Shown here piece by piece: positions 5,529 to 44,816 of a stretch of 64,000 nucleotides of DNA (its first letter is position 1; every line of letters begins with the position of its first letter). The notes beneath the pieces are model-generated. The model made no database searches. It was not told where the DNA came from and was given only the letters and a program-made list of their open reading frames with translations. This DNA comes from Candidatus Micrarchaeota archaeon (GTDB taxonomy: Archaea > Micrarchaeota > Micrarchaeia > Anstonellales > Anstonellaceae): contig JAKAJC010000002.1 in the NCBI GenBank assembly GCA_021814005.1, positions 4,325 to 68,324 of the forward strand. The letters run 5' to 3'. The position numbers and the translations under genes are program-made.

Positions 5529-7577
5529 GTGGATTGTTTGCGTCTGATTGCGCTTGTGATGGGCTTTTTGCTGCTGCTCAGCGCAATTCATGCGGACACA
5601 ACCGCCAGCTATACGCAAGACGGCCTTTTGATTGAGCGCACAATGCAAATCCGCCCAATCAACTCCATCAGCACAACAACGGGAGCGCTGCGCGCGCTCA
5701 ACGGCACCATCATCACTCTTTCAGTCACCAACCGCGGCCCGTCAGACAGGCACAACCTCACTCTGGAGGAAGACATCACATATCTTCCGTCATACATCCG
5801 CATAATCTACAGCATCAAGCCTTCGCAGACCGACGGCCGCAGGGTTTTGTGGAATGTCGGGGATTTGCCGGCAGGCAGTCGTTTCGAGGTGTCTTTCAGC
5901 CTGCCAACTCCTGTATCAGACGCAGCCGTTGAATCTGCCAAGCCCCCCACAGTCCGCTCGGCGCGGCCCCCGGCCGAAATCATTGTTCCTAACATTGTGG
6001 ACCGGGGTCAGACCGTTGTGCTGCGCCTCACCACCCCCGACGGGGTTCCGATAAACGACGCGCAAGTCGAGCTCATAAGCCCCGGTGGCATCCGCTCGTC
6101 AGGAACAACTGATGCGATGGGCCGCTTTGTCTTCGTGGCCGACCAGGCCGGATATTACACTTATAGCATTCCCGACTTCACGGCCGGCGCAATTCCGGCA
6201 ACAGAAAGCCGCGTGCCTGTCGTGGTGACGCCGCCAACCACCGGCGCAATCACCCCGGTCTCAAACGCCTCAAGCTCCACTCCGCTCTTTTCATTTGACG
6301 CTCTAATCGGCCTGTGGCCGCTGGTCGGCGGGCTTCTCATCATCGGCCTGCTCGCGTTCGGCATCTACAGCTATTTCAACCGCCCGAGCGACGACAGCCC
6401 GACCGCTCCCGCGCCGGCATTCCGCCCGCCCGTGCGCGACGGCGACGGCATGACGCCAACAGCCTCCCCTTCCTCAACCGTGCCTGATGCTTCGGCATCC
6501 ATGCCCTCCTCAACAAGAACAGCGCCATCCCCCCCGTCTTCAACCTCTTTTGGTGCATCCAACCCGCAAGTCGTCTCACAGACGCGCGGCCTGCTCGCGG
6601 CAAGGCGCGCAGCCAAAAACGGTGATGATGCGCCGCAAAACCCGGCATCGTCTGGCACAAGCGCAGATACCGACGACGAAGAGTCTCAAACAGGCAAACA
6701 TCCCGGCGAATTCGACTTCAGCTCAAAGCCCCGCTACAGCGAGGAAACAACCGCGATTTTGGAAAGCGGAAATCTTTCTGACTCAGGCAACGAAGGAAAA
6801 GATGAGAATGAGACCGAACATTTCACATCAGATGAAACAGAGGAGAGCGGCGACTCTTCGGATTCATCCGGCTCTCCCCCGCCGTCATGGATGACTCATG
6901 AAGCCCTGAACGGCGAGCGCGCCGAAGTGGATGACGAAGCAATCACCAAAACCATCTCGGAACTGGAGGCCCTGCGCTCGGAGCTGAAAAACCGCGCCAG
7001 CGCCCGCGCCGCGTCAGGTGAAGAGCAGTTCGAGCCGTCTTCGCAAAGCGGACAGTCGTCCAGAGAGCGCCATCTCAAGGAGGCATTCAACGAGCTTGGA
7101 AATCTCGGGCAGGAGATGGACAATGAGAACACCCAGGAAGCATCTGATGATTCGCAAGTAAGTTCGGACATTCTCTCCCAAGCAGCAGAGCCTGAAGCGT
7201 CTGACGAGGAAATCACCCAATCCATCGCGCCTGAAGAGATTCCAACAGTTTCGGAGGCCGCCGCGGCGGATGAGCGCGGCGAGGGCGGCGAGGGCGAAGA
7301 ACAGGGCGCCCAGAGCTATGAGCCGCAGCTCCCAGAAGCCGAAGAGGCGCCGCGCATCATCATGGAGCCTATTTCAATTTCGCCCATTCCTCCGCGCATG
7401 AGCCGCGTGGCCAAGAGGCCGGCCAAGCAGGCCGCCCGCCGCTCTCCGGTGAAAACAGCGAGCGCGAAAAAGAAATCAGCAGTTTCACAGGGCAAAAAAA
7501 CTCCTGCTGCCCAAAAAGCATTGCCTGCCAAACGCGCTCCCGCCAAAAAGCATGCGGCAAAATCGAAAAAACGCTAA
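5529..7577 (+). CDS. Signal-peptide membrane or surface protein with a carboxypeptidase-regulatory-like beta domain, one TM helix, a long disordered S/P/T-rich then acidic region, and a Lys/Ala/Pro-rich C-terminal tail
   Basis: The signal peptide is MGFLLLLSAIHA. A CarbopepD_reg-like stretch reads VELISPGGIRSSGTTDAMGRFVFVADQAGYYTYSI. The TM helix is LIGLWPLVGGLLIIGLLAFGIYSYF. About 330 aa of low complexity follow, ending KKSAVSQGKKTPAAQKALPAKRAPAKKHAAKSKKR. The listed start is GTG at 5529; an ATG lies at 5559. Confidence 0.6.
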   Translation: MDCLRLIALVMGFLLLLSAIHADTTASYTQDGLLIERTMQIRPINSISTTTGALRALNGTIITLSVTNRGPSDRHNLTLEEDITYLPSYIRIIYSIKPSQTDGRRVLWNVGDLPAGSRFEVSFSLPTPVSDAAVESAKPPTVRSARPPAEIIVPNIVDRGQTVVLRLTTPDGVPINDAQVELISPGGIRSSGTTDAMGRFVFVADQAGYYTYSIPDFTAGAIPATESRVPVVVTPPTTGAITPVSNASSSTPLFSFDALIGLWPLVGGLLIIGLLAFGIYSYFNRPSDDSPTAPAPAFRPPVRDGDGMTPTASPSSTVPDASASMPSSTRTAPSPPSSTSFGASNPQVVSQTRGLLAARRAAKNGDDAPQNPASSGTSADTDDEESQTGKHPGEFDFSSKPRYSEETTAILESGNLSDSGNEGKDENETEHFTSDETEESGDSSDSSGSPPPSWMTHEALNGERAEVDDEAITKTISELEALRSELKNRASARAASGEEQFEPSSQSGQSSRERHLKEAFNELGNLGQEMDNENTQEASDDSQVSSDILSQAAEPEASDEEITQSIAPEEIPTVSEAAAADERGEGGEGEEQGAQSYEPQLPEAEEAPRIIMEPISISPIPPRMSRVAKRPAKQAARRSPVKTASAKKKSAVSQGKKTPAAQKALPAKRAPAKKHAAKSKKR

Positions 7578-24427: not shown

Positions 24428-26032
24428 TCAGTCCTGTTTTATCTTGTTTTTATTCTCGAAAATATGCAGCGGGCCGTTGGTCCATCTCTGCTCGAACGGC
24501 GCGGGCACCATGCTGGCATTCTCGCACGCGCCAACCCGCATCACAACATAATCATAATCCTCGCCAATCCGCGTCCAGTTGAGCGTTTGGTAATACTCTT
24601 TCCAATACTTGCATTTCTCCTGTGTTGGCTTTGCAAACACCTTGTATGCCAAATCCCCGATTGCGCCGTTCAATTCAAGCCTCTCGTTTGCCGCCGGCTC
24701 CTTGAACTGGACCGGCGTATATCCTTCGGCAAATATGTATGGCACATATACCCCTTTTTGCACCACCCAGTAGCCCCACGCGTGGAAATAGGGGCTCACA
24801 CCGCCCTGCTCGCCGCTCATGGCAAATCCCTCGCCAATCGGCAACACCGTCACATTTGACCCGCCGGCAAGATGGTCTGCAACCGACGCGATTGCCTCAA
24901 TGTGCGGCTGCTCGGCCGCCCATCCGGCCATCATCACGCCCATTTCGGCCAGCGTGAAAATGAGAAGTGCAATAGTCAATTCCGAAATCAGCTGTTTGGC
25001 GCCCCGCTCGGCCAGCGGCTTGAACATGGCCGCCGCCATCGCGAAAATAAAGAAAGGCCACAGGCGCGGGGCCGCAAACTGCCAGCTTGCCGTGCTCTCG
25101 GGCAGCAGCATTGCGCCCGCGGCCAGAAGCGCGGCAACCGCCAGCCACGCGCCGGCAGGCATTCCGCCTTTTTTCTCGGAGCGCATCCAGATGATGATGT
25201 CGGTCGCCACTATGACGAAAAAGATTATGCTGAGCGCCGGATTCGGCGGAACGTGGAGAAGATAATTGAATTTTTGCAAAGCCCCGCCCCAAACCATCTG
25301 CCCGCCCTGCTCGGGGGCAAGAATGGGGCCGAGGGAGAGAACCGCAATGGCCAGAACAGGCAGTGCAAATGCCAAATCCCATCTGATGTTTTTGAAAAGA
25401 GAATCAAGGCCGTCTTTCGCGCTCTTTCTTTTCCATGCCGCCTGTCCGGCTTCGACAAGGCGCATCACTCCAATGACTCCGACAAGCACCGCTCCGGCCA
25501 CGATATGGGTGATGGTCGCAAAAACAGAGAGAAAAACAGCCAGCACAATGCTTTTCGCGCCTCTTTCCCCCGCCGATTTCATCCAATATCCTGCCGCAAT
25601 CAAAAACAATGGTATGCACAGCGCGTAATTGAGAAACCCCATGAGGAAAAACCAGTTGTAGGCCAGCGCAGCGCCAAGCGCGCCTCCAAGCGGCTCGAGC
25701 GTTGGCTCGATTTTGCGCATGAAATAGGCGGCCCCCCAGATGCTGAGGATTATAGTGATGGAAAGCAGCAGCCGGCCGCTTGCCTCCACTCCGGCAAACG
25801 GGCCCAAAACCCGCATGAACCAGAAATCTGTCGAATTGGGCAGAAGCAGGTTCGGGTTTGCCTGCATGTAAGAGGGCCTGCCGGCATCGTTTTCAATTAC
25901 CATGCGCACTCCGGCCAGATGGTTGGGCCAGTCGTTGAGCGGCAGGAAATGGAAATACCAGATTGGGATGAGAAGAAGAATTGTGAATATGGCGAGGGCC
26001 CAGAACCACCATGGTTTTGACGGAATTCGCAT
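24428..26032 (-). CDS. Polytopic integral membrane protein, possible GT-C fold glycosyltransferase
   Basis: 534 aa with at least 12 TM helices. An early loop has an acidic/aromatic motif (PLNDWPNHLAG), and the C-terminal soluble domain is about 100 aa. It lies next to a Wzx-like flippase. The function is inferred from topology only. Confidence 0.45.
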   Translation of the reverse strand: MRIPSKPWWFWALAIFTILLLIPIWYFHFLPLNDWPNHLAGVRMVIENDAGRPSYMQANPNLLLPNSTDFWFMRVLGPFAGVEASGRLLLSITIILSIWGAAYFMRKIEPTLEPLGGALGAALAYNWFFLMGFLNYALCIPLFLIAAGYWMKSAGERGAKSIVLAVFLSVFATITHIVAGAVLVGVIGVMRLVEAGQAAWKRKSAKDGLDSLFKNIRWDLAFALPVLAIAVLSLGPILAPEQGGQMVWGGALQKFNYLLHVPPNPALSIIFFVIVATDIIIWMRSEKKGGMPAGAWLAVAALLAAGAMLLPESTASWQFAAPRLWPFFIFAMAAAMFKPLAERGAKQLISELTIALLIFTLAEMGVMMAGWAAEQPHIEAIASVADHLAGGSNVTVLPIGEGFAMSGEQGGVSPYFHAWGYWVVQKGVYVPYIFAEGYTPVQFKEPAANERLELNGAIGDLAYKVFAKPTQEKCKYWKEYYQTLNWTRIGEDYDYVVMRVGACENASMVPAPFEQRWTNGPLHIFENKNKIKQD

Positions 26033-26080: not shown

Positions 26081-26091
26081 CATCTATTCGC

Positions 26092-26177
26092 GCTGGGGTC
26101 GCATAACCCGGTATTGCGGCAGGTTGCTAACCTGTTGGGGCGATAGCCTCTTACGAGTTCAAATCTCGTCCCCGGCG
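26092..26177 (+). tRNA. tRNA-Ser (anticodon GCU), type II with long variable arm; CCA not encoded
   Basis: The manual fold gives acceptor GCUGGGG/CCCCGGC (one G-U pair) with discriminator G. The D-stem is GCA(U)/(U)UGC. The anticodon stem GCAGG/CCUGU carries loop UUGCUAA, reading anticodon GCU. A 17-nt variable arm has a 5-bp stem (GGGGC/GCCUC). The T-arm is ACGAG-UUCAAAU-CUCGU. The total length is 86 nt. Confidence 0.85.
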
Positions 26178-26182
26178 AAAGG

Positions 26183-26335: not shown

Positions 26336-27574
26336 ATGTTGAAGTACTTTCACCTTCTCCGCCAACAGCTCAAAGAGCGCAATTTCATGCTGCTCAACGC
26401 CATCTCCATAGCCGGCACGGTGGTCGGCATGGGGCTTGCCTATCTTTTCCAGCCCATCGCAACCCGTTTTCTCACTCCGGCAGACTACGGCATTCTTGCC
26501 ATCATGGTGGCCTTGTGGTCCATGCTCACACTCCCCCTGAACGCCATCACCTCCACTCTTGCGCGCGAAATGTCGGCGCGCGAATCCGACGTGCCTGCAA
26601 TCAATTTTCTGCTTAGAAAATATTTGCAGAAGTTCGGCCTATATTCTGTCATTGTCTCGCTGCTCGCGGCCGCTCTTTCTTTTTTGTTTAACCAGCCGCT
26701 TCTTGCCCTGCTTTTTTTGGGCCTTCCTGCCGCAGTGCTCATTGCCATCGGCAGCGCATGGCTGCAGGCGCGCGAGCGCATACTTGAATTGACAATAGTG
26801 CAGAACGGCCAGAACCTTCTGCGCGTTGCGGCCCTGCTGGTTTTCCTCCTCTTGGGCTGGGGTTTGTTCGGGGCAACTCTCGCCCTGCCTGTCTATGCAT
26901 TTGCCATGCTTGTCCTTCTTCTGGTCTTTCTGCTGCCGCAAACAAAGAAGCAGAAAAATGTTGTCATCCACCTTCGCAGCGCGTTCGGCCTTCTCGTTGT
27001 TTTGCAATTGGTGCAAATCGTTTTGCTTTACGAAGATTTGTTCATGGTCCAATTATTCTTGGGGCCCGTGCAGACCGGCATCTACAATGTTGCCGAAATA
27101 ACGGCGAAAATCCTCTTCCTTCTGGCCGGCGCAATCGGCCTTGTGCTTTATCCAAAAATAGCGAAACTGGCCGGCAGTGCATTGCGCAAAGAGGGCACGC
27201 GCCTGCTGCTGTTGGGCATGGCGTTGCTGGTGCCGGTGTTCATCGGCTTCCAGCTTGTTGCAGAGCCGTTCATGACATTTTTCTATCCGGGCCCCGTCTA
27301 TTCGGCCAGCGTGGGCCCTTTTCGCATACTCGCCGCCGCCATGCTGTTTGCCGGCTGGGCGCAGCTGATGACATTCTTTCTTCTTGCGCGCCACGGCGAG
27401 AAGCCGATGCTGCTTGTGTACGGTCTGCTGCTGGCGCTTAACGCGCTCGTGCAATGGTGGATAGTTCCGCTCTTCGGCCTTGCCGGCGCGGCATGGGGTG
27501 CGTCTGCAAGCATTCTTGTTCTTGACATCTTGCTGGCACTGCTGGTGTGGCGGCAGCTGAAAAAAAGCAAATGA
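26336..27574 (+). CDS. Polysaccharide/oligosaccharide flippase (MOP superfamily, Wzx-like)
   Basis: 412 aa with about 12 TM helices and MOP/Wzx-type hydrophobic periodicity; the N-terminal pattern is typical of polysaccharide-biosynthesis flippases. The start may be at a downstream ATG (MLLNAISIAG). Confidence 0.65.
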   Translation: MLKYFHLLRQQLKERNFMLLNAISIAGTVVGMGLAYLFQPIATRFLTPADYGILAIMVALWSMLTLPLNAITSTLAREMSARESDVPAINFLLRKYLQKFGLYSVIVSLLAAALSFLFNQPLLALLFLGLPAAVLIAIGSAWLQARERILELTIVQNGQNLLRVAALLVFLLLGWGLFGATLALPVYAFAMLVLLLVFLLPQTKKQKNVVIHLRSAFGLLVVLQLVQIVLLYEDLFMVQLFLGPVQTGIYNVAEITAKILFLLAGAIGLVLYPKIAKLAGSALRKEGTRLLLLGMALLVPVFIGFQLVAEPFMTFFYPGPVYSASVGPFRILAAAMLFAGWAQLMTFFLLARHGEKPMLLVYGLLLALNALVQWWIVPLFGLAGAAWGASASILVLDILLALLVWRQLKKSK

Positions 27575-32939: not shown

Positions 32940-33515
32940 CTACTTCCGCCTCTCCAGTCTGCCGTGGCCGGGGCAGAGGATTTTCCACTCCACCCCCTCA
33001 AGCAATTGCAGGCTTTCCTCCATCCGCTCCTCCGCGCCCAGCCCGCCCAAATCCGTTCTTCCGTATCCGCCGTCCGCGAATTTGGTGTCCCCAGAGAAAA
33101 GAAAGCCGCTCTTCTCCTCGAAAAGGCACATGCTTCCCGGAGTGTGGCCCGGCGTGTGGATGATGTTGAAATGAAAAGGGCCGAAATCAAAATGCTGGCC
33201 GACAAGCGGTTTGGAATTTTTCGGAATGTTCATGAACGGCAGAGAAGAATCTTCGGCCGGGTGAATCCATACCTCTTTCCAGTCCGGCTTCACGCCTCTC
33301 GTGTGGTCAAAATGGCCGTGCGTAAGAAAGACCGAGTCGGGCGTGAAATCCAGCTCGTCCTTGCCATCTCCAGAGTCAATCATCATTGTCCTGTTTTTCT
33401 TCTCGTCCACGGCCAAATAGCGGGTGGAGCATGTGCGGTTTTCAACCTCGTAAAATAAGATGCCCTTGACGCCTTTGTCTATGGGCCTGAAATCGGAAAT
33501 GGAAATCTTTTTCAT
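32940..33515 (-). CDS. MBL-fold metallo-hydrolase (glyoxalase II-like)
   Basis: It has HGHFDHTRG (HxHxDH) and HTPGHTPGS. The start is MKKISISDF at 33515, and its ATG overlaps the stop of the upstream NFACT-R gene in ATGA. The tool's longer 263-aa version adds an Arg/Ala/Gly-rich junk N-terminus. Confidence 0.7.
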   Translation of the reverse strand: MKKISISDFRPIDKGVKGILFYEVENRTCSTRYLAVDEKKNRTMMIDSGDGKDELDFTPDSVFLTHGHFDHTRGVKPDWKEVWIHPAEDSSLPFMNIPKNSKPLVGQHFDFGPFHFNIIHTPGHTPGSMCLFEEKSGFLFSGDTKFADGGYGRTDLGGLGAEERMEESLQLLEGVEWKILCPGHGRLERRK

Positions 33516-34300
33516 TGAATCACGAATTTTCCGCCCGGCAGAAGCGGCGCGACTTCTTCCACACTGGCGCCCAAGCGGGCCGAGAGAATTTTGGCTGCTT
33601 CCTCTTTCGGCATTGGGCCAGGCGCGAGCGATGCAGCCTGTTCCAATTCCTGCGGATGGATTGCGGGCAGCATGGCGAGCTGTCCGTCCAGATTTCCTAT
33701 TCTCAATTTCAGCGGCATCTGGCGGAACCATTCCCTCTCTCCAGTCAGAACAAAACTGCCAGGGCCAACATAGCCGCCGCCGTCATGCTTGCTCACTTGC
33801 GTGGGGGGCACGGCAAACACGTCAACGGCCGAGGCGCCCACTTTCCATGCCGAAGAATAGGCGCCAGCCCACTGCGCGGCCTCCCTTTTTTCCTCTTCGC
33901 TTGCTTTTTGCCCGTCCTTCAAAATGACTGTGGGCGCGCCCTGAATGTCTGCATGGAAAAACAGGTCTGCGGGAGAGAGGTGCTTGGCATACAATTCGTC
34001 GTTCTGCTTGGCATTTCTGCCCGCCACCACGCGCCGCCCGCCCGAGCCGACGAATGTGAGATAGGGCTCGTACCAGTAGGTTTTCTTTTTCGGCTGTTTT
34101 GATTTCGATGAAGATGATTTTGTTTTTTCTTTTGTTTTTTCCCCTGTTTTTTCTTTTTTCTCAGCCTCGCCAATCTCTTTTTTCGTCTGCTCCATCGCCG
34201 TGAGCAGGCCGGCCTTCTTTTCTTTAAGCTTGCGCAATTCGGCGTATTTGTCCGACAGATTCTGGCGCGCGCTTTTGCGCGCATCAAGCTCGATGTCCAT
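33512..34300 (-). CDS. NFACT-R (DUF814) domain protein with N-terminal coiled coil (C-terminal half of an RqcH/NEMF-like protein)
   Basis: The N-terminal Lys/Glu-rich coiled coil is followed by YWYEPYLTFVGSGGRRVVAGRNAKQNDELYAKHLSPADLFFHADIQGAPTVIL, the NFACT-R/DUF814 core. Confidence 0.65.
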   Translation of the reverse strand: MDIELDARKSARQNLSDKYAELRKLKEKKAGLLTAMEQTKKEIGEAEKKEKTGEKTKEKTKSSSSKSKQPKKKTYWYEPYLTFVGSGGRRVVAGRNAKQNDELYAKHLSPADLFFHADIQGAPTVILKDGQKASEEEKREAAQWAGAYSSAWKVGASAVDVFAVPPTQVSKHDGGGYVGPGSFVLTGEREWFRQMPLKLRIGNLDGQLAMLPAIHPQELEQAASLAPGPMPKEEAAKILSARLGASVEEVAPLLPGGKFVIQ

Positions 34301-34404: not shown

Positions 34405-35385
34405 GTGAACTCTATGCCCTTCCTTCGCAACTTCATGCAAACCCATTACAAGCATTTCAATTCCGCTGTCGTCGTCGACGCGTCAGATGCCTATATCGAC
34501 CTGCTTGACAAGAAGCACGGCAAGATGTTCATGACTCTGGCCGGCGCCATGTCCACGGCCGAATTGGGCAAATCTTTGGCGGAAATGATTCGGCAGAACA
34601 AGGTGCATGCCATCACCTGCACGGGCGCCAACCTCGAAGAGGACGTGTTCAACCTCGTGGCCAACAAGCTCTACAAGCGCGTGCCCGAATACCGCTCGCT
34701 AACGGCCGAGCAGGAAATGGAGCTCTACAAAGAGGGTTTTAACCGCGTCACAGACACCTGCATTCCCGAGGACGAAGCGTTCCGCAAAATCGAGGGCCAC
34801 CTGCTCACTCTCTGGCAAAAGGCCGAAGCAGAGGGCAAGCGCTATTTCCCCCACGAATATTTCTACCAGCTTCTTCTCTCCGGCCTGCTGAAAGGCGAAT
34901 ACCAGATAGACCCCAAAAACTCATGGCTTCTGGCCGCGGCCGAGAAAAATCTTCCAATGTTCGTGCCCGGCTGGGAAGACTCCACCATGGGCAATGTCAT
35001 CGTGGCGCGCATGATGCAGAAGAAAATCAAGAGCACCGCAATGGTCAAAACCGGCCTTGACTACATGCACGAGCTGGTGCGCTGGTACAAAAAAGAGGCT
35101 GCCGGCGGACCAATAGGCTTTTTCCAAATCGGCGGCGGCATTGCCGGTGACTTCCCCATCTGCGCCGTGCCGCTCATGACTCAGGATTTGGAAATGGATG
35201 TGCCGCGCTGGGGATATTTCTGCCAGATTTCAGACTCGACCACTTCGTACGGCTCCTATTCCGGCGCGGTGCCGAACGAGAAAATCACCTGGGGCAAACT
35301 TGGCGTCGAAACCCCCAAATTCGTCATCGAGTCTGATGCGACCATTGTGGCCCCGCTGATTTTCGGCTATGTCCTGAACTGGTAG
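34405..35385 (+). CDS. dys: Deoxyhypusine synthase-like protein
   Basis: ITCTGANLEEDVF parallels the DHS motif TTAGGIEEDFIK; GFFQIGGGIAGDF and a length of 326 aa fit the DHS fold. A TATA-like CCTTTTTATATTTT lies about 25 bp upstream, suggesting a leaderless transcript. The assignment is from memory of the family. Confidence 0.55.
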   Translation: MNSMPFLRNFMQTHYKHFNSAVVVDASDAYIDLLDKKHGKMFMTLAGAMSTAELGKSLAEMIRQNKVHAITCTGANLEEDVFNLVANKLYKRVPEYRSLTAEQEMELYKEGFNRVTDTCIPEDEAFRKIEGHLLTLWQKAEAEGKRYFPHEYFYQLLLSGLLKGEYQIDPKNSWLLAAAEKNLPMFVPGWEDSTMGNVIVARMMQKKIKSTAMVKTGLDYMHELVRWYKKEAAGGPIGFFQIGGGIAGDFPICAVPLMTQDLEMDVPRWGYFCQISDSTTSYGSYSGAVPNEKITWGKLGVETPKFVIESDATIVAPLIFGYVLNW

Positions 35386-35457
35386 ACAAGCTGTCACCGC
35401 CTTCTGCCGACCGATTGCTTTATTTTCTCCCATTCCCCTCTTCTCTATGGTGAATCC

Positions 35458-36969
35458 ATGCGTGGGATGATTTTTCTAACTCTGGCAATTTTCTTCACAG
35501 TTCTGCTGCCTCTTGCGCACGCGCAGTCTGTGCCGAGCGAAATCGCAAGCACGATTGAGCTCAACATGGACCTCACATCGCAAACGCTCTCTTCTGAAGG
35601 CTCGTCAGTGCAGCTTCTCTCGCTCGACGGCCGCCCGAGCTTTATAGTCGAGAACAACCTGCTCGTGCGCGACCCTGTCCGCATTCAGGCGATTTTGGAA
35701 AAAAACATCTCCCTCACCTCGGGCTTTTATGGCGCAATCGCCACAACGCGCGATTCGCTCAACGATTTGCAGGCAATCCGCGCCGCGCCCGAAGCCCACT
35801 GCGCCCAGTATATGGCAGTGGACCGCTTCCCCTGCTTTGACAAGACGAGCTGTGTCAAGGCGGCGCAGGCAAACCCCCAGACCACAGTCATGATAAACGC
35901 CGAGGGCTTCTGGCAGGCGATGGTGGACTGGCAGATGCGCCGCACAGACTTCAATGACAGCATCAACTCGCTCAACGCAACGCTTCAATCAATGTCGCCG
36001 ACGCCCGCTTACTCGAGCGGAGTGCAGGCGGGCATGAACGACGTGCAGGCGAAATTCGACGCGTTCATGCACAACGACCTCTACCGCACCCGCTATGACG
36101 CTGACTGCACCAAATTCAACCGCTCAACCTGCTTCGAGTTCTGCGCCCGCACCAACTGGACCGGCTACTCGAACTGGACTGCCACCGCCGCCTCATGGTC
36201 TGCGGTCAACTCGCGCCTGAACAGCATGGGCTCGCAGTCCTCGCGCGCGCAGGAACTTGCGCAGGCCACCTCCGACTGGCTGAACTATTCCAAAAACCGG
36301 CAGGCGATTTGGGCCGCCATGAACAATGACATGGCCGCGCGAACTGCTTCAATTGACGGAAACATAAGCGCGGCAAACGGCTCCTGGTCCGACCCCGGCC
36401 TCTCGGCCGACATCTCGGCATGGAAAAATTCGCTCAACAGCACGCGCGCTCTCGCGGTGCAGGGCCGCTTCCGCGCCGCTCTTGACACCAAGCCGCAGCT
36501 TGTGAACCAGTCCGACCGGCTGCTGAGCCGCATCACAGACCACCAGACGCGCATGGAGCACATAACCAACAGCATCAAATCAACCCGCTTGGCAGTGGCT
36601 CAGCTGGTCAAATCATCAAACAACCAGTCGGCCACCTTTGCAGCCAGCCTTGCTTCTCTTGAGCAGGCGGCCAAGCCGCCGATTCCGTCAGACCAGCTTC
36701 CCGCCCTTGAAAACCAGTCGTCAAATCTTGAGCAGCTGACCCTTTCCGAAGTCGCCCGCGCGGCCCTCGGCGCCCCGCCGGCGGCCCACGACACTGGCGC
36801 AGAGGCGCAGGCAATCGCGGCAAATCTTAGCAACGGGACTAACGCAAGCGGCAATGCGACACTGGCGCCATCTGCTGTCAAGATTTCCCTGCCGTTCGGC
36901 CTGCAATGCCCGGTTTCGATAGGCCTCATCGGCCTCATCGGCCTGCTCGCCGCTCTTCGCTCGAGGTAA
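35458..36969 (+). CDS. Secreted, heavily N-glycosylation-sequon-rich cell-surface (S-layer-like) glycoprotein with C-terminal PFG-TM-RSR anchor
   Basis: The signal peptide is MRGMIFLTLAIFFTVLLPLAHA|QS. More than 20 N-x-S/T sequons are present (NISLTS, NDSINSLNATLQS, NRST, NWTGYSNWT, NYSKN, NGSWS, NSLNSTR, NQSD, NQSATF, NQSSN, NLSNGTNASGNATL). The C-terminus is LPFGLQCPVSIGLIGLIGLLAALRSR, a tripeptide, a TM helix and a basic tail, as in the PGF-CTERM class. Confidence 0.6.
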   Translation: MRGMIFLTLAIFFTVLLPLAHAQSVPSEIASTIELNMDLTSQTLSSEGSSVQLLSLDGRPSFIVENNLLVRDPVRIQAILEKNISLTSGFYGAIATTRDSLNDLQAIRAAPEAHCAQYMAVDRFPCFDKTSCVKAAQANPQTTVMINAEGFWQAMVDWQMRRTDFNDSINSLNATLQSMSPTPAYSSGVQAGMNDVQAKFDAFMHNDLYRTRYDADCTKFNRSTCFEFCARTNWTGYSNWTATAASWSAVNSRLNSMGSQSSRAQELAQATSDWLNYSKNRQAIWAAMNNDMAARTASIDGNISAANGSWSDPGLSADISAWKNSLNSTRALAVQGRFRAALDTKPQLVNQSDRLLSRITDHQTRMEHITNSIKSTRLAVAQLVKSSNNQSATFAASLASLEQAAKPPIPSDQLPALENQSSNLEQLTLSEVARAALGAPPAAHDTGAEAQAIAANLSNGTNASGNATLAPSAVKISLPFGLQCPVSIGLIGLIGLLAALRSR

Positions 36970-43958: not shown

Positions 43959-44816
43959 TTATTCCACTCGAATACTGATGGGGATTGTGATGTTCTCGCC
44001 CGGCAAGTCCGAGCCGGCGGCCGGCACGGCGCTGATGGTGAGGTAGCCCGCCCGCAGGCCGGGCGTGATGGAGGAAATCGTCACAATGGCCGTCTGGGCG
44101 GCCCCAGATGCGAGGTCCCCGTTCGTGCCGTCATAGGCGCAGCTGACGGTTCCGGAAGGGCAGCTCAGCGTTTGGGCGAGAGTATAAGTCACGTTGGCCC
44201 GGTTGCTGATGAGCAGGCGGGTGGAATTGGCCGGCCCGCCATTCGGGATTCTCATGTAGATGCCAGTTATGTTCACCACCAGCCCTCCAGCCGGGCGGAT
44301 GAGCACGTGCGTGCCGTTGTTGTAGACCGAAGCATAGAACCGCCCCGTCTTGAGCGGCCACTGCCCGCTCACGTTCATCGGCAGCGAGCGCGAGACGTCT
44401 CCAATCCCGCTGATGTTGAGCGAGAGCGTGCGGCCGGCTATCCTGCTTGTCGCCAGGTCGGCAGCATCGGGAATGTCAACCGTCATCTTCTGTTCTGCCC
44501 CTGCCCCGGCCGCCCAGACCTCCTGCGCCGCCCCGGCCAGCACGCTTAAACTGTGCGCGGCCGTGCGCTGCTGCACCACTATGCCCTGCTGCGCATACTG
44601 GCCCATGAACACGATGACGAGGACGAGCAGTATGAGCAGCATGGCCGCCGTGAGCATGAGATACTCCAAAGAAACTTGTCCGCACGGGGCCCGGCCCCGC
44701 GAGACCTGAGCGCGCAGGACCTGGCCCCGCGAGACCTGAGCGCGCAGGACCTGGCCCCGCGAGACCTGAGCGCGCAGGACCTGGCCCAGCGAATTTTGGC
44801 CGCGTGGTGTTTTCAT
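43959..44816 (-). CDS. Archaeal type IV pilin-like protein (DUF361/EppA-substrate class) with a repeat-expanded leader
   Basis: The class III signal is ...RG RAPCG|QVSLEYLMLTAAMLLILLVLVIVF (G-1, Q+1, E+5 and a hydrophobic helix). The mature domain is beta/Gly-rich with N-x-S/T sites. The leader contains the motif RGQVLRAQVS three times. Confidence 0.7.
   Translation of the reverse strand: MKTPRGQNSLGQVLRAQVSRGQVLRAQVSRGQVLRAQVSRGRAPCGQVSLEYLMLTAAMLLILLVLVIVFMGQYAQQGIVVQQRTAAHSLSVLAGAAQEVWAAGAGAEQKMTVDIPDAADLATSRIAGRTLSLNISGIGDVSRSLPMNVSGQWPLKTGRFYASVYNNGTHVLIRPAGGLVVNITGIYMRIPNGGPANSTRLLISNRANVTYTLAQTLSCPSGTVSCAYDGTNGDLASGAAQTAIVTISSITPGLRAGYLTISAVPAAGSDLPGENITIPISIRVE
44701..44790. repeat. 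Perfect 30-bp direct tandem repeat x3 (GAGACCTGAGCGCGCAGGACCTGGCCCCGC) with degenerate flanking partial copies
   Basis: Read directly: copies at 44701-730 and 44731-760 are identical, and copy 44761-790 has a single change. A partial copy lies at 44681-700. The repeat is in frame (10 codons) within the pilin leader on the minus strand. Confidence 0.85.

Follow-up and report, generated by a model that had tools for sequence, protein, structure and literature searches.

The C-terminal sorting signals of Haloferax and of the Thermococcales and the surface layers (S-layers) of the Sulfolobales and Micrarchaeota are the described systems closest to the protein considered here, the 503-amino-acid (aa) product of an open reading frame (ORF) at positions 35458..36969 (+) of a 64,000-nucleotide (nt) stretch of Candidatus Micrarchaeota contig JAKAJC010000002.1 (assembly GCA_021814005.1), hereafter the window. 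The PGF-CTERM signal (TIGR04126), processed by archaeosortase A (ArtA) in Haloferax volcanii, is a tripartite C-terminus that follows a glycosylated Ser/Thr/Asn-rich linker on secreted glycoproteins, with its PGF tripeptide abutting the transmembrane (TM) helix, and archaeosortases have been reported from a subset of Euryarchaeota (PMC6098224). In Cys-containing tripartite signals, an invariant Cys lies within a short signature placed directly against the TM helix, without a spacer; an Arg-rich basic cluster follows the helix, and a glycosylatable low-complexity stretch precedes the signature. CGP-CTERM of the Thermococcales is the archaeal example, and the processing enzymes are predicted to be Rce1-like CPBP “myxosortases” (bioRxiv 10.1101/2023.06.07.544157). 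SlaB, the membrane stalk of the Sulfolobales S-layer, is about 475 to 500 aa long, carries a Sec signal peptide, and is heavily N-glycosylated; part of it is elongated and helical (coiled-coil-like), and one C-terminal TM segment is retained as its anchor. Within the Micrarchaeota, the S-layer protein of Ca. Micrarchaeum harzensis (SLP_Mh; 101 kDa, with PF05123, TIGR01564, and TIGR01567) was found by proteomics; no membrane anchor has been identified in it, its authors suggested that a separate TM stalk protein might anchor it, and the micrarchaeal pseudoperiplasm was measured at 20 to 25 nm (bioRxiv 10.1101/2021.04.28.441871).

The gene at 35458..36969 belongs to a new, uncharacterized family of predicted C-terminally anchored surface glycoproteins of Micrarchaeota. 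It is a complete ORF, running from an ATG start through 503 codons to a stop codon, with the same bounds as in an earlier note made from the letters of the sequence. That note's general proposal, a secreted, sequon-dense surface glycoprotein anchored at its C-terminus, is supported by a predicted signal peptide, conserved sequons, an Asn/Ser/Thr/Pro-rich linker, and a hydrophobic tail closed by a basic cluster. Its specific suggestion about how the tail works, namely that a PFG tripeptide marks a lineage-specific variant of PGF-CTERM, finds no support, and the residue that the family conserves in this region is a different one.

The C-terminus reads ...NLSNGTNASGNATLAPSAVKISL-PFG-LQC-PVSIGLIGLIGLLAAL-RSR, directly followed by the stop codon. 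As the earlier note described, it contains a PFG tripeptide (P479-F480-G481; 36892..36900, +), a hydrophobic membrane-spanning segment (L482..L500; 36901..36957, +; Kyte-Doolittle hydropathy 2.55 over 15 residues), and a basic tail predicted to be cytoplasmic (R501-S502-R503; 36958..36966, +). What went unmentioned there is C484, three residues after PFG, which opens a Cys-Pro signature abutting the membrane segment (C484-P485-V486-S487; 36907..36918, +; C484 codon at 36907..36909) and places the tripeptide at positions −5 to −3. Across the last 40 positions of the alignment of 11 close homologues, only C484 and G492 (inside the helix) are invariant; the invariance of G492 is limited to these 11 sequences, and C484 is the sole invariant residue of the signature. 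PFG itself is confined, among the same homologues, to the five closest (at least 69% identity), and it recurs in two metagenome relatives (L011 and L012, 42 to 44% identity), both of which have PFG-LPC.

The wider family shows the same pattern. A terminal Cys stands directly before an uncharged run in 76 of 139 family sequences, and tail statistics were taken over 74 of these 76. After the Cys, the uncharged run has a median length of 16 residues (range, 14 to 21) and leads into a K/R cluster in all but one of the 74 tails (73/74). Prolines flank the Cys on both sides: a Pro occurs at +1 to +3 in 66 tails and at −1 in 35. P-x-G at −5 to −3 is present in 13 tails, with PFG as such in five. The resulting consensus is (P-x-G)-[LI]-P-C-x(0,2)-P, then approximately 16 uncharged residues, then K/R. 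On this pattern of conservation, PFG appears to be one spelling of a loosely conserved P-x-G whose middle residue is free, and the functional signature of the tail appears to be the boundary Cys flanked by prolines rather than PFG.

This pattern bears directly on whether PFG-TM-RSR could be a lineage-specific PGF-CTERM variant, at which an archaeosortase (ArtA-F) would cleave and exchange the helix for a lipid anchor. The resemblance that suggested it is real enough: the layout is tripartite, the letters P, F, and G stand just ahead of the helix, an Asn/Ser/Thr-rich stretch lies upstream on a secreted glycoprotein, and PFG reappears in L011 and L012 despite their low overall identity. However, PFG is missing from 69 of the 74 tails, its F position is variable, and L-Q-C sets the tripeptide apart from the helix, whereas PGF abuts it. 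The comparison with PGF-CTERM models that the earlier note had called for returned no match to TIGR04126 at E ≤ 10, either for the tail of this protein or for 59 family tails. The order of the letters also matters: the passage in PMC6098224 that cites Abdul Halim et al. 2016 states that the Haloferax S-layer glycoprotein is neither cleaved by ArtA nor lipidated once its PGF has been permuted to PFG. Archaeosortases, reported from a subset of the Euryarchaeota, were not found here, there being none (PF09721/TIGR04125) among the multi-TM proteins of the window, its Pfam annotations, or the fetched loci. Because of the tail conservation pattern, the blocking effect of the permutation as given in that passage, and the reported euryarchaeal restriction, the archaeosortase reading of PFG is disfavored; it can be regarded as largely refuted, and we would be very surprised to see it return.

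A better match in layout is provided by Cys-type signals such as CGP-CTERM and MYXO-CTERM, for which there is an archaeal precedent in the Thermococcales. Under this explanation, the boundary Cys would be lipidated after export, and the helix and basic tail would be cut off by an intramembrane protease, leaving the protein lipid-anchored. In architecture, the tail corresponds exactly to the signals of Haft (bioRxiv 10.1101/2023.06.07.544157): a short signature with proline and an invariant Cys sits right against a short helix, a basic cluster forms the extreme C-terminus (Arg/Lys here, Arg-rich there), and a low-complexity stretch that could be glycosylated lies upstream. In addition, the C-[LMA]-P and C-P-L-P tails of some family members resemble C-G-P. 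In four distant members (P0075, P0076, P0078, and P0079), the TM tail is replaced by an amphipathic C-terminal helix between two Cys residues (e.g., ...ILCIINQFLANFGINLGLC), such that a Cys is kept even though the TM helix is not. Three others (P0016, P0019, and P0080) have an amphipathic C-terminal helix instead of the TM tail and no Cys; together, the amphipathic tails suggest that one and the same ectodomain may be attached to the membrane in different ways.

Searches with curated models set the family apart from the described members of this class. No family tail reaches the cutoff of any curated CTERM model of the Cys type (TIGR04288, TIGR03901, NF033191, and others), and the family motif, [LI]-P-C-x(0,2)-P, differs from C-G-P. 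When the 45-residue tail of the protein was searched alone, no PGF-, PEF-, PEFG-, PIP-, VPXXXP-, CGP-, or MYXO-CTERM model matched at E ≤ 10, the only CTERM-named match being a weak one to WGxxGxxG-CTERM (E = 1.6). Scanned singly, the 59 family tails gave no match to PGF-, PEF-, PEFG-, PIP-, or CGP-CTERM at the same threshold; one tail matched VPXXXP-CTERM (E = 0.0066), and one matched the NCBIfam “lipo-invert” model (E = 0.12), on which a literature search found nothing. Comparison of 45-aa tails with a collection of 5.8 billion proteins returned no match at E ≤ 10, a threshold that so short a domain does not reach in so large a database. By these comparisons, the tail would be nearest to the Cys-type tripartite signals and yet a member of no described family.

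The distribution of the tail points in the same direction. Known Cys-type signals occur on many unrelated proteins per genome, whereas a tail hidden Markov model (HMM) and a regular expression, run over the window plus 20 fetched loci (357 kb in all, partly redundant and drawn from several genomes), recovered the tail from family members only. This restriction to a single family argues against a many-substrate system, though not against a dedicated one. The family belongs to a DPANN lineage, and neither the window nor any fetched neighborhood contains a gene for the cognate type of protease, CPBP (PF02517). Moreover, several family members have plain TM tails, and processing of the known archaeal Cys signal is itself only predicted. 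A further comparison comes from the metagenome-assembled genome GCA_002778455.1, which encodes two family paralogues, COU37_00145 and COU37_05210 (10001..11419 of L013/L014 and 5949..7382 of L018). The paralogue in the conserved gene context (P0017) has an ordinary TM tail without Cys, and the second (P0015) has a Cys-Pro tail, an unrelated gene context, and only one sequon. Since P0017 is the positional orthologue and its tail is a plain TM segment, a simple anchor appears to be enough in that genome.

On balance, we favor a retained stop-transfer anchor with a functional boundary Cys, which may serve for lipidation or for an inter-subunit disulfide, on a type-I (N-out, C-in) surface N-glycoprotein that is not an archaeosortase substrate; this is the probable explanation, and a cleaved Cys-type sorting signal ranks second, as a possibility that we hold only tentatively. 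The plain TM anchor that the earlier note offered as a fallback thus remains the leading mechanism, except that the anchor carries a conserved Cys-Pro motif. Several points weigh against a retained anchor of this kind. The Cys-Pro motif is still present where ectodomain identity has fallen to approximately 20%, with the linker and helix residues next to it drifting freely; such constraint would seem to exceed the needs of a passive anchor, and the architecture is that of processed Cys-type sorting signals. Two of the 59 family tails match MYXO-CTERM, albeit below threshold (the best, from the distant member P0058, scores 16.1 bits against a cutoff of 20). A sorting enzyme could also lie elsewhere in the source genome, of which approximately 70 kb was inspected (the 64-kb window and about 7 kb past its end, where nothing relevant was found). 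Finally, with respect to the glycoprotein itself, no gene for AglB was seen in the window, and a search of the window for the WWDYG motif was also negative; the capacity for glycosylation is, therefore, taken from the literature on another micrarchaeon.

With a retained anchor as the preferred explanation, the life of the protein can be pictured as follows. Sec would export the chain, and a 22-residue signal peptide would be removed. The ectodomain would then fold outside the cell into a Cys-rich head, stabilized by disulfides, followed by a helical-bundle rod of approximately 10 nm, and AglB-type N-glycosylation could take place at up to 17 sequons. The rod would be joined to the single C-terminal membrane segment by a glycosylated, flexible linker in which Asn, Ser, Thr, and Pro abound, and a short Arg/Lys cytoplasmic tail would hold that segment in the membrane. 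The Cys at the outer boundary of the membrane would be the site of modification or cross-linking, that is, of lipidation or of an inter-subunit disulfide.

The N-terminal end of this picture rests on a Sec-type signal peptide predicted at residues 1 to 22 (MRGMIFLTLAIFFTVLLPLAHA, cleaved before QS; 35458..35523, +), which consists of MRG, 16 hydrophobic residues, and AHA|QS. The HA|Q cleavage site is kept in the alignment of the 11 close homologues, in which A22 is nearly invariant, and the N-terminus is hydrophobic in 125 of 137 family members. As for glycosylation, the claim of more than 20 sequons was too high in number, though not in kind: the 503-aa protein contains 17 N-x-S/T sequons (x not P), compared with 6.1 expected from its composition, and none of 5,000 shuffles reached 17. 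The resulting density (3.4 per 100 aa) is roughly tenfold the value for the remaining 51 window ORFs with 150 aa or more (0.32 per 100 aa). Six of the sequons (N166, N221, N233, N276, N327, and N389) are retained in at least 10 of the 11 close homologues, which argues for selection on putative glycosylation sites rather than an artefact of composition.

Features of the ectodomain were derived from the alignment of close homologues and from a confident AlphaFold2 model built with an 11-sequence alignment (predicted local distance difference test [pLDDT] score, 81; predicted template modeling score, 0.63), which depicts an elongated helical bundle, disulfide-rich in prediction. Near the N-terminus lies a small beta domain of four predicted strands (residues 39 to 70; 35572..35667, +; pLDDT 88 to 96), within the part of the protein that a profile search finds most widely conserved across the family (residues 7 to 145). 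It is followed by a Cys-rich helical head (residues 115 to 229; 35800..36144, +), in which six Cys residues (C115, C126, C132, C217, C225, and C229) are invariant among the 11 close homologues; four of them (C115, C126, C132, and C229) are still invariant over 67 diverse members. The head also contains the conserved motifs FPCFDKxSCVKA...NAEGFWEAM and CTKFNRSTCFEYC, and its Cys residues are probably disulfide bonded. The rod (residues 237 to 455; 36166..36822, +) is an elongated helical bundle in the model and includes one unbroken 70-residue helix (residues 237 to 306) of approximately 10 nm. Between rod and membrane, a predicted disordered juxtamembrane linker (residues 456 to 478, with disorder extending to about residue 481 in the model; 36823..36891, +; pLDDT 26 to 43) is rich in Asn, Ser, Thr, and Pro and holds four sequons (NLS, NGT, NAS, and NAT); across the family, Pro makes up 7.0% of this linker versus 2.4% of the remainder of the protein.

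None of these regions is recognizable from described proteins. The whole protein has no match in Pfam or NCBIfam, nor do 10 diverse family members; Foldseek searches against the PDB and viral structures gave no match better than E = 0.3; and a profile search of PDB sequences returned only spurious coiled-coil matches to the Max bHLH-zipper (E of about 0.03). No S-layer entry in the PDB was matched, whether by sequence or by fold.

These comparisons, together with the predicted shape of the protein, leave little room for the possibility that the S-layer lattice of this archaeon is formed by the protein itself. It is, to be sure, secreted in prediction, heavily decorated with sequons, and conserved across the phylum, and many archaeal S-layer proteins have C-terminal anchors. 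However, SLP_Mh, the micrarchaeal S-layer protein identified by proteomics (bioRxiv 10.1101/2021.04.28.441871), is of the PF05123/TIGR01564/TIGR01567 type; it resembles the present protein in phylum, in secretion and N-glycosylation (both predicted here), and in conservation across Micrarchaeota, but the two are unrelated in sequence and domain content, and ours has none of these domains. Known archaeal lattice formers are, moreover, beta-rich and sulfur-poor, whereas the rod is predicted to be all-helical, in a protein with seven Cys residues. We, thus, consider a role as the lattice protein very improbable.

A closer parallel, by analogy, is SlaB. A glycosylated rod of approximately 10 nm, set on a flexible linker and held by a C-terminal anchor, would have the architecture of a SlaB-like S-layer stalk, and the size, Sec signal peptide, heavy (here predicted) N-glycosylation, elongated helical region, and single C-terminal TM segment are all comparable. 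The likeness is one of architecture only, and the link to an S-layer is hypothetical: there is no similarity in sequence, profile, or fold, no slaA-like gene is adjacent, and the head is Cys-rich and helical where SlaB has beta-sandwich domains. A bolder proposal would join both themes, such that [LI]-P-C-x(0,2)-P plus helix plus K/R would be an undescribed Cys-type sorting or lipidation signal dedicated to one phylum-wide family, and that family would be the missing S-layer stalk across the 20 to 25 nm pseudoperiplasm. Taken as a whole, this conjecture is unlikely, if far less so than a PGF-CTERM variant or a lattice protein.

The extent of the family was assessed by several searches. A word-indexed search recovered 11 close homologues (32 to 100% identity), and repeating the search with a 67-sequence family alignment returned the same 11 and nothing further. 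Searched exhaustively with an HMM, 1.84 billion cluster representatives yielded 130 clusters at E ≤ 1e−3, 54 of them at E ≤ 1e−30; most are 450 to 520 aa in length. Genome and metagenome scans with the family yielded only three and two loci, respectively, because the back-translated patterns are specific to the close subclade. Among named relatives, five of six are labeled “Candidatus Micrarchaeota” or “Micrarchaeia,” and one (P0007) is labeled Marsarchaeota. Based on these source names, this appears to be a phylum-wide, lineage-restricted, uncharacterized family of DPANN archaea. Public taxonomic labels disagree within this clade (L008, L010, P0007, P0015, P0016, and P0082), in that one metagenome-assembled genome is assigned to the Marsarchaeota and others to the Micrarchaeota or Micrarchaeia.

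Gene order provides a second line of comparison among family members. The neighbors in the window are NFACT-R, deoxyhypusine synthase, PIN_9, Yip1, and H+-PPase, and the order NFACT-R (−)/family gene (+)/PIN_9 (+)/H+-PPase persists from the window out to relatives with only approximately 21 to 34% identity, which identifies positional orthologues; other family members sit in unrelated gene contexts. Neither a membrane protease nor an S-layer gene occurs among the conserved neighbor genes across the fetched loci, and in none of these loci is the family gene linked to an S-layer gene. The NFACT-R ORF (33512..34300, −; 262 aa) corresponds to only the C-terminal NFACT-R part of archaeal RqcH, covering positions 380 to 644 of the 645 in NF041120. 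In L018 and L020, this short NFACT-R gene directly precedes the surface-protein gene, on the opposite strand; in the window, L003, L004, and L007, it is one gene away, with deoxyhypusine synthase inserted between the two (an insertion not present in L018 and L020). The inserted gene in the window (34405..35385, +) matches the Pfam DS model at E = 3.7e−44, but its score of 119.7 bits compares with an NCBIfam equivalog cutoff of 434 and is far below every such cutoff; it is a divergent deoxyhypusine synthase.

Another ORF, of 1,474 to 1,522 aa, is conserved approximately 4 kb upstream of the family gene in L003 (1000..5424), L004 (1036..5604), and L007 (711..5144, −). It has no Pfam match, zero to two Cys residues, and no obvious signal peptide, and the window contains a SUF iron-sulfur operon at this location instead. 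We considered this ORF as a SlaA-like partner and rejected it, given its lack of a signal peptide, few sequons, low Cys count, and absence from the window.

Immediately 5′ of the surface-protein gene, an A/T-rich, TATA-box-like element (TTTATTTT; 35419..35426, +) lies approximately 32 to 39 nt ahead of the ATG, and a Shine-Dalgarno-like GGTGA (35449..35453, +) lies 5 to 9 nt ahead of it; both were read from the sequence and are putative promoter-region elements. A sigma-70 promoter scan was set aside as not relevant to archaea.

Other genes in the window may also contribute to the cell surface. A 285-aa ORF (43959..44816, −) possesses an internal class III prepilin-type signal (G|QVSLEYLMLTAAMLLILLVLVIVF), a match to PF04021 (E = 0.0043), and seven sequons; its product is probably glycosylated and type-IV-pilin-like. 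Farther upstream, the ORF consists of a four-fold GQVLRAQVSR repeat that is probably untranslated. A 534-aa protein with about nine TM segments and no Pfam or NCBIfam match (24428..26032, −) adjoins a Polysacc_synt (flippase-like) gene (26336..27574, +) and a tRNA-Ser (26091..26178). The 534-aa protein is paired with Polysacc_synt in the distant relative L020 as well; the two could function in glycan assembly, though the pair has no WWDYG motif and is not an obvious AglB. Lastly, a further candidate for the cell surface, with a C-terminus of another type, is a 682-aa secreted protein (5529..7577, +); it has five sequons and a long Lys/Ala-rich C-terminal tail, and it matches CarboxypepD_reg and DUF11 weakly, below threshold.

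Micrarchaeota are obligate, genome-reduced symbionts, and their cell surface is, therefore, the site of contact with the host. To date, the S-layer protein of Ca. Micrarchaeum harzensis is the only micrarchaeal surface component to have been identified. A phylum-wide, heavily glycosylated, membrane-anchored rod would readily suggest itself as a stalk, spacer, or host-contact molecule, and the family offers a concrete target for proteomics and cryo-electron tomography in existing co-cultures. If the tail is only a retained anchor, these proteins would be ordinary, lineage-specific hypothetical surface glycoproteins; if the Cys-Pro tail is processed or lipidated, the recently proposed class of Cys-type C-terminal signals would extend to DPANN archaea, and the family would provide a single-substrate system for finding the responsible enzyme.

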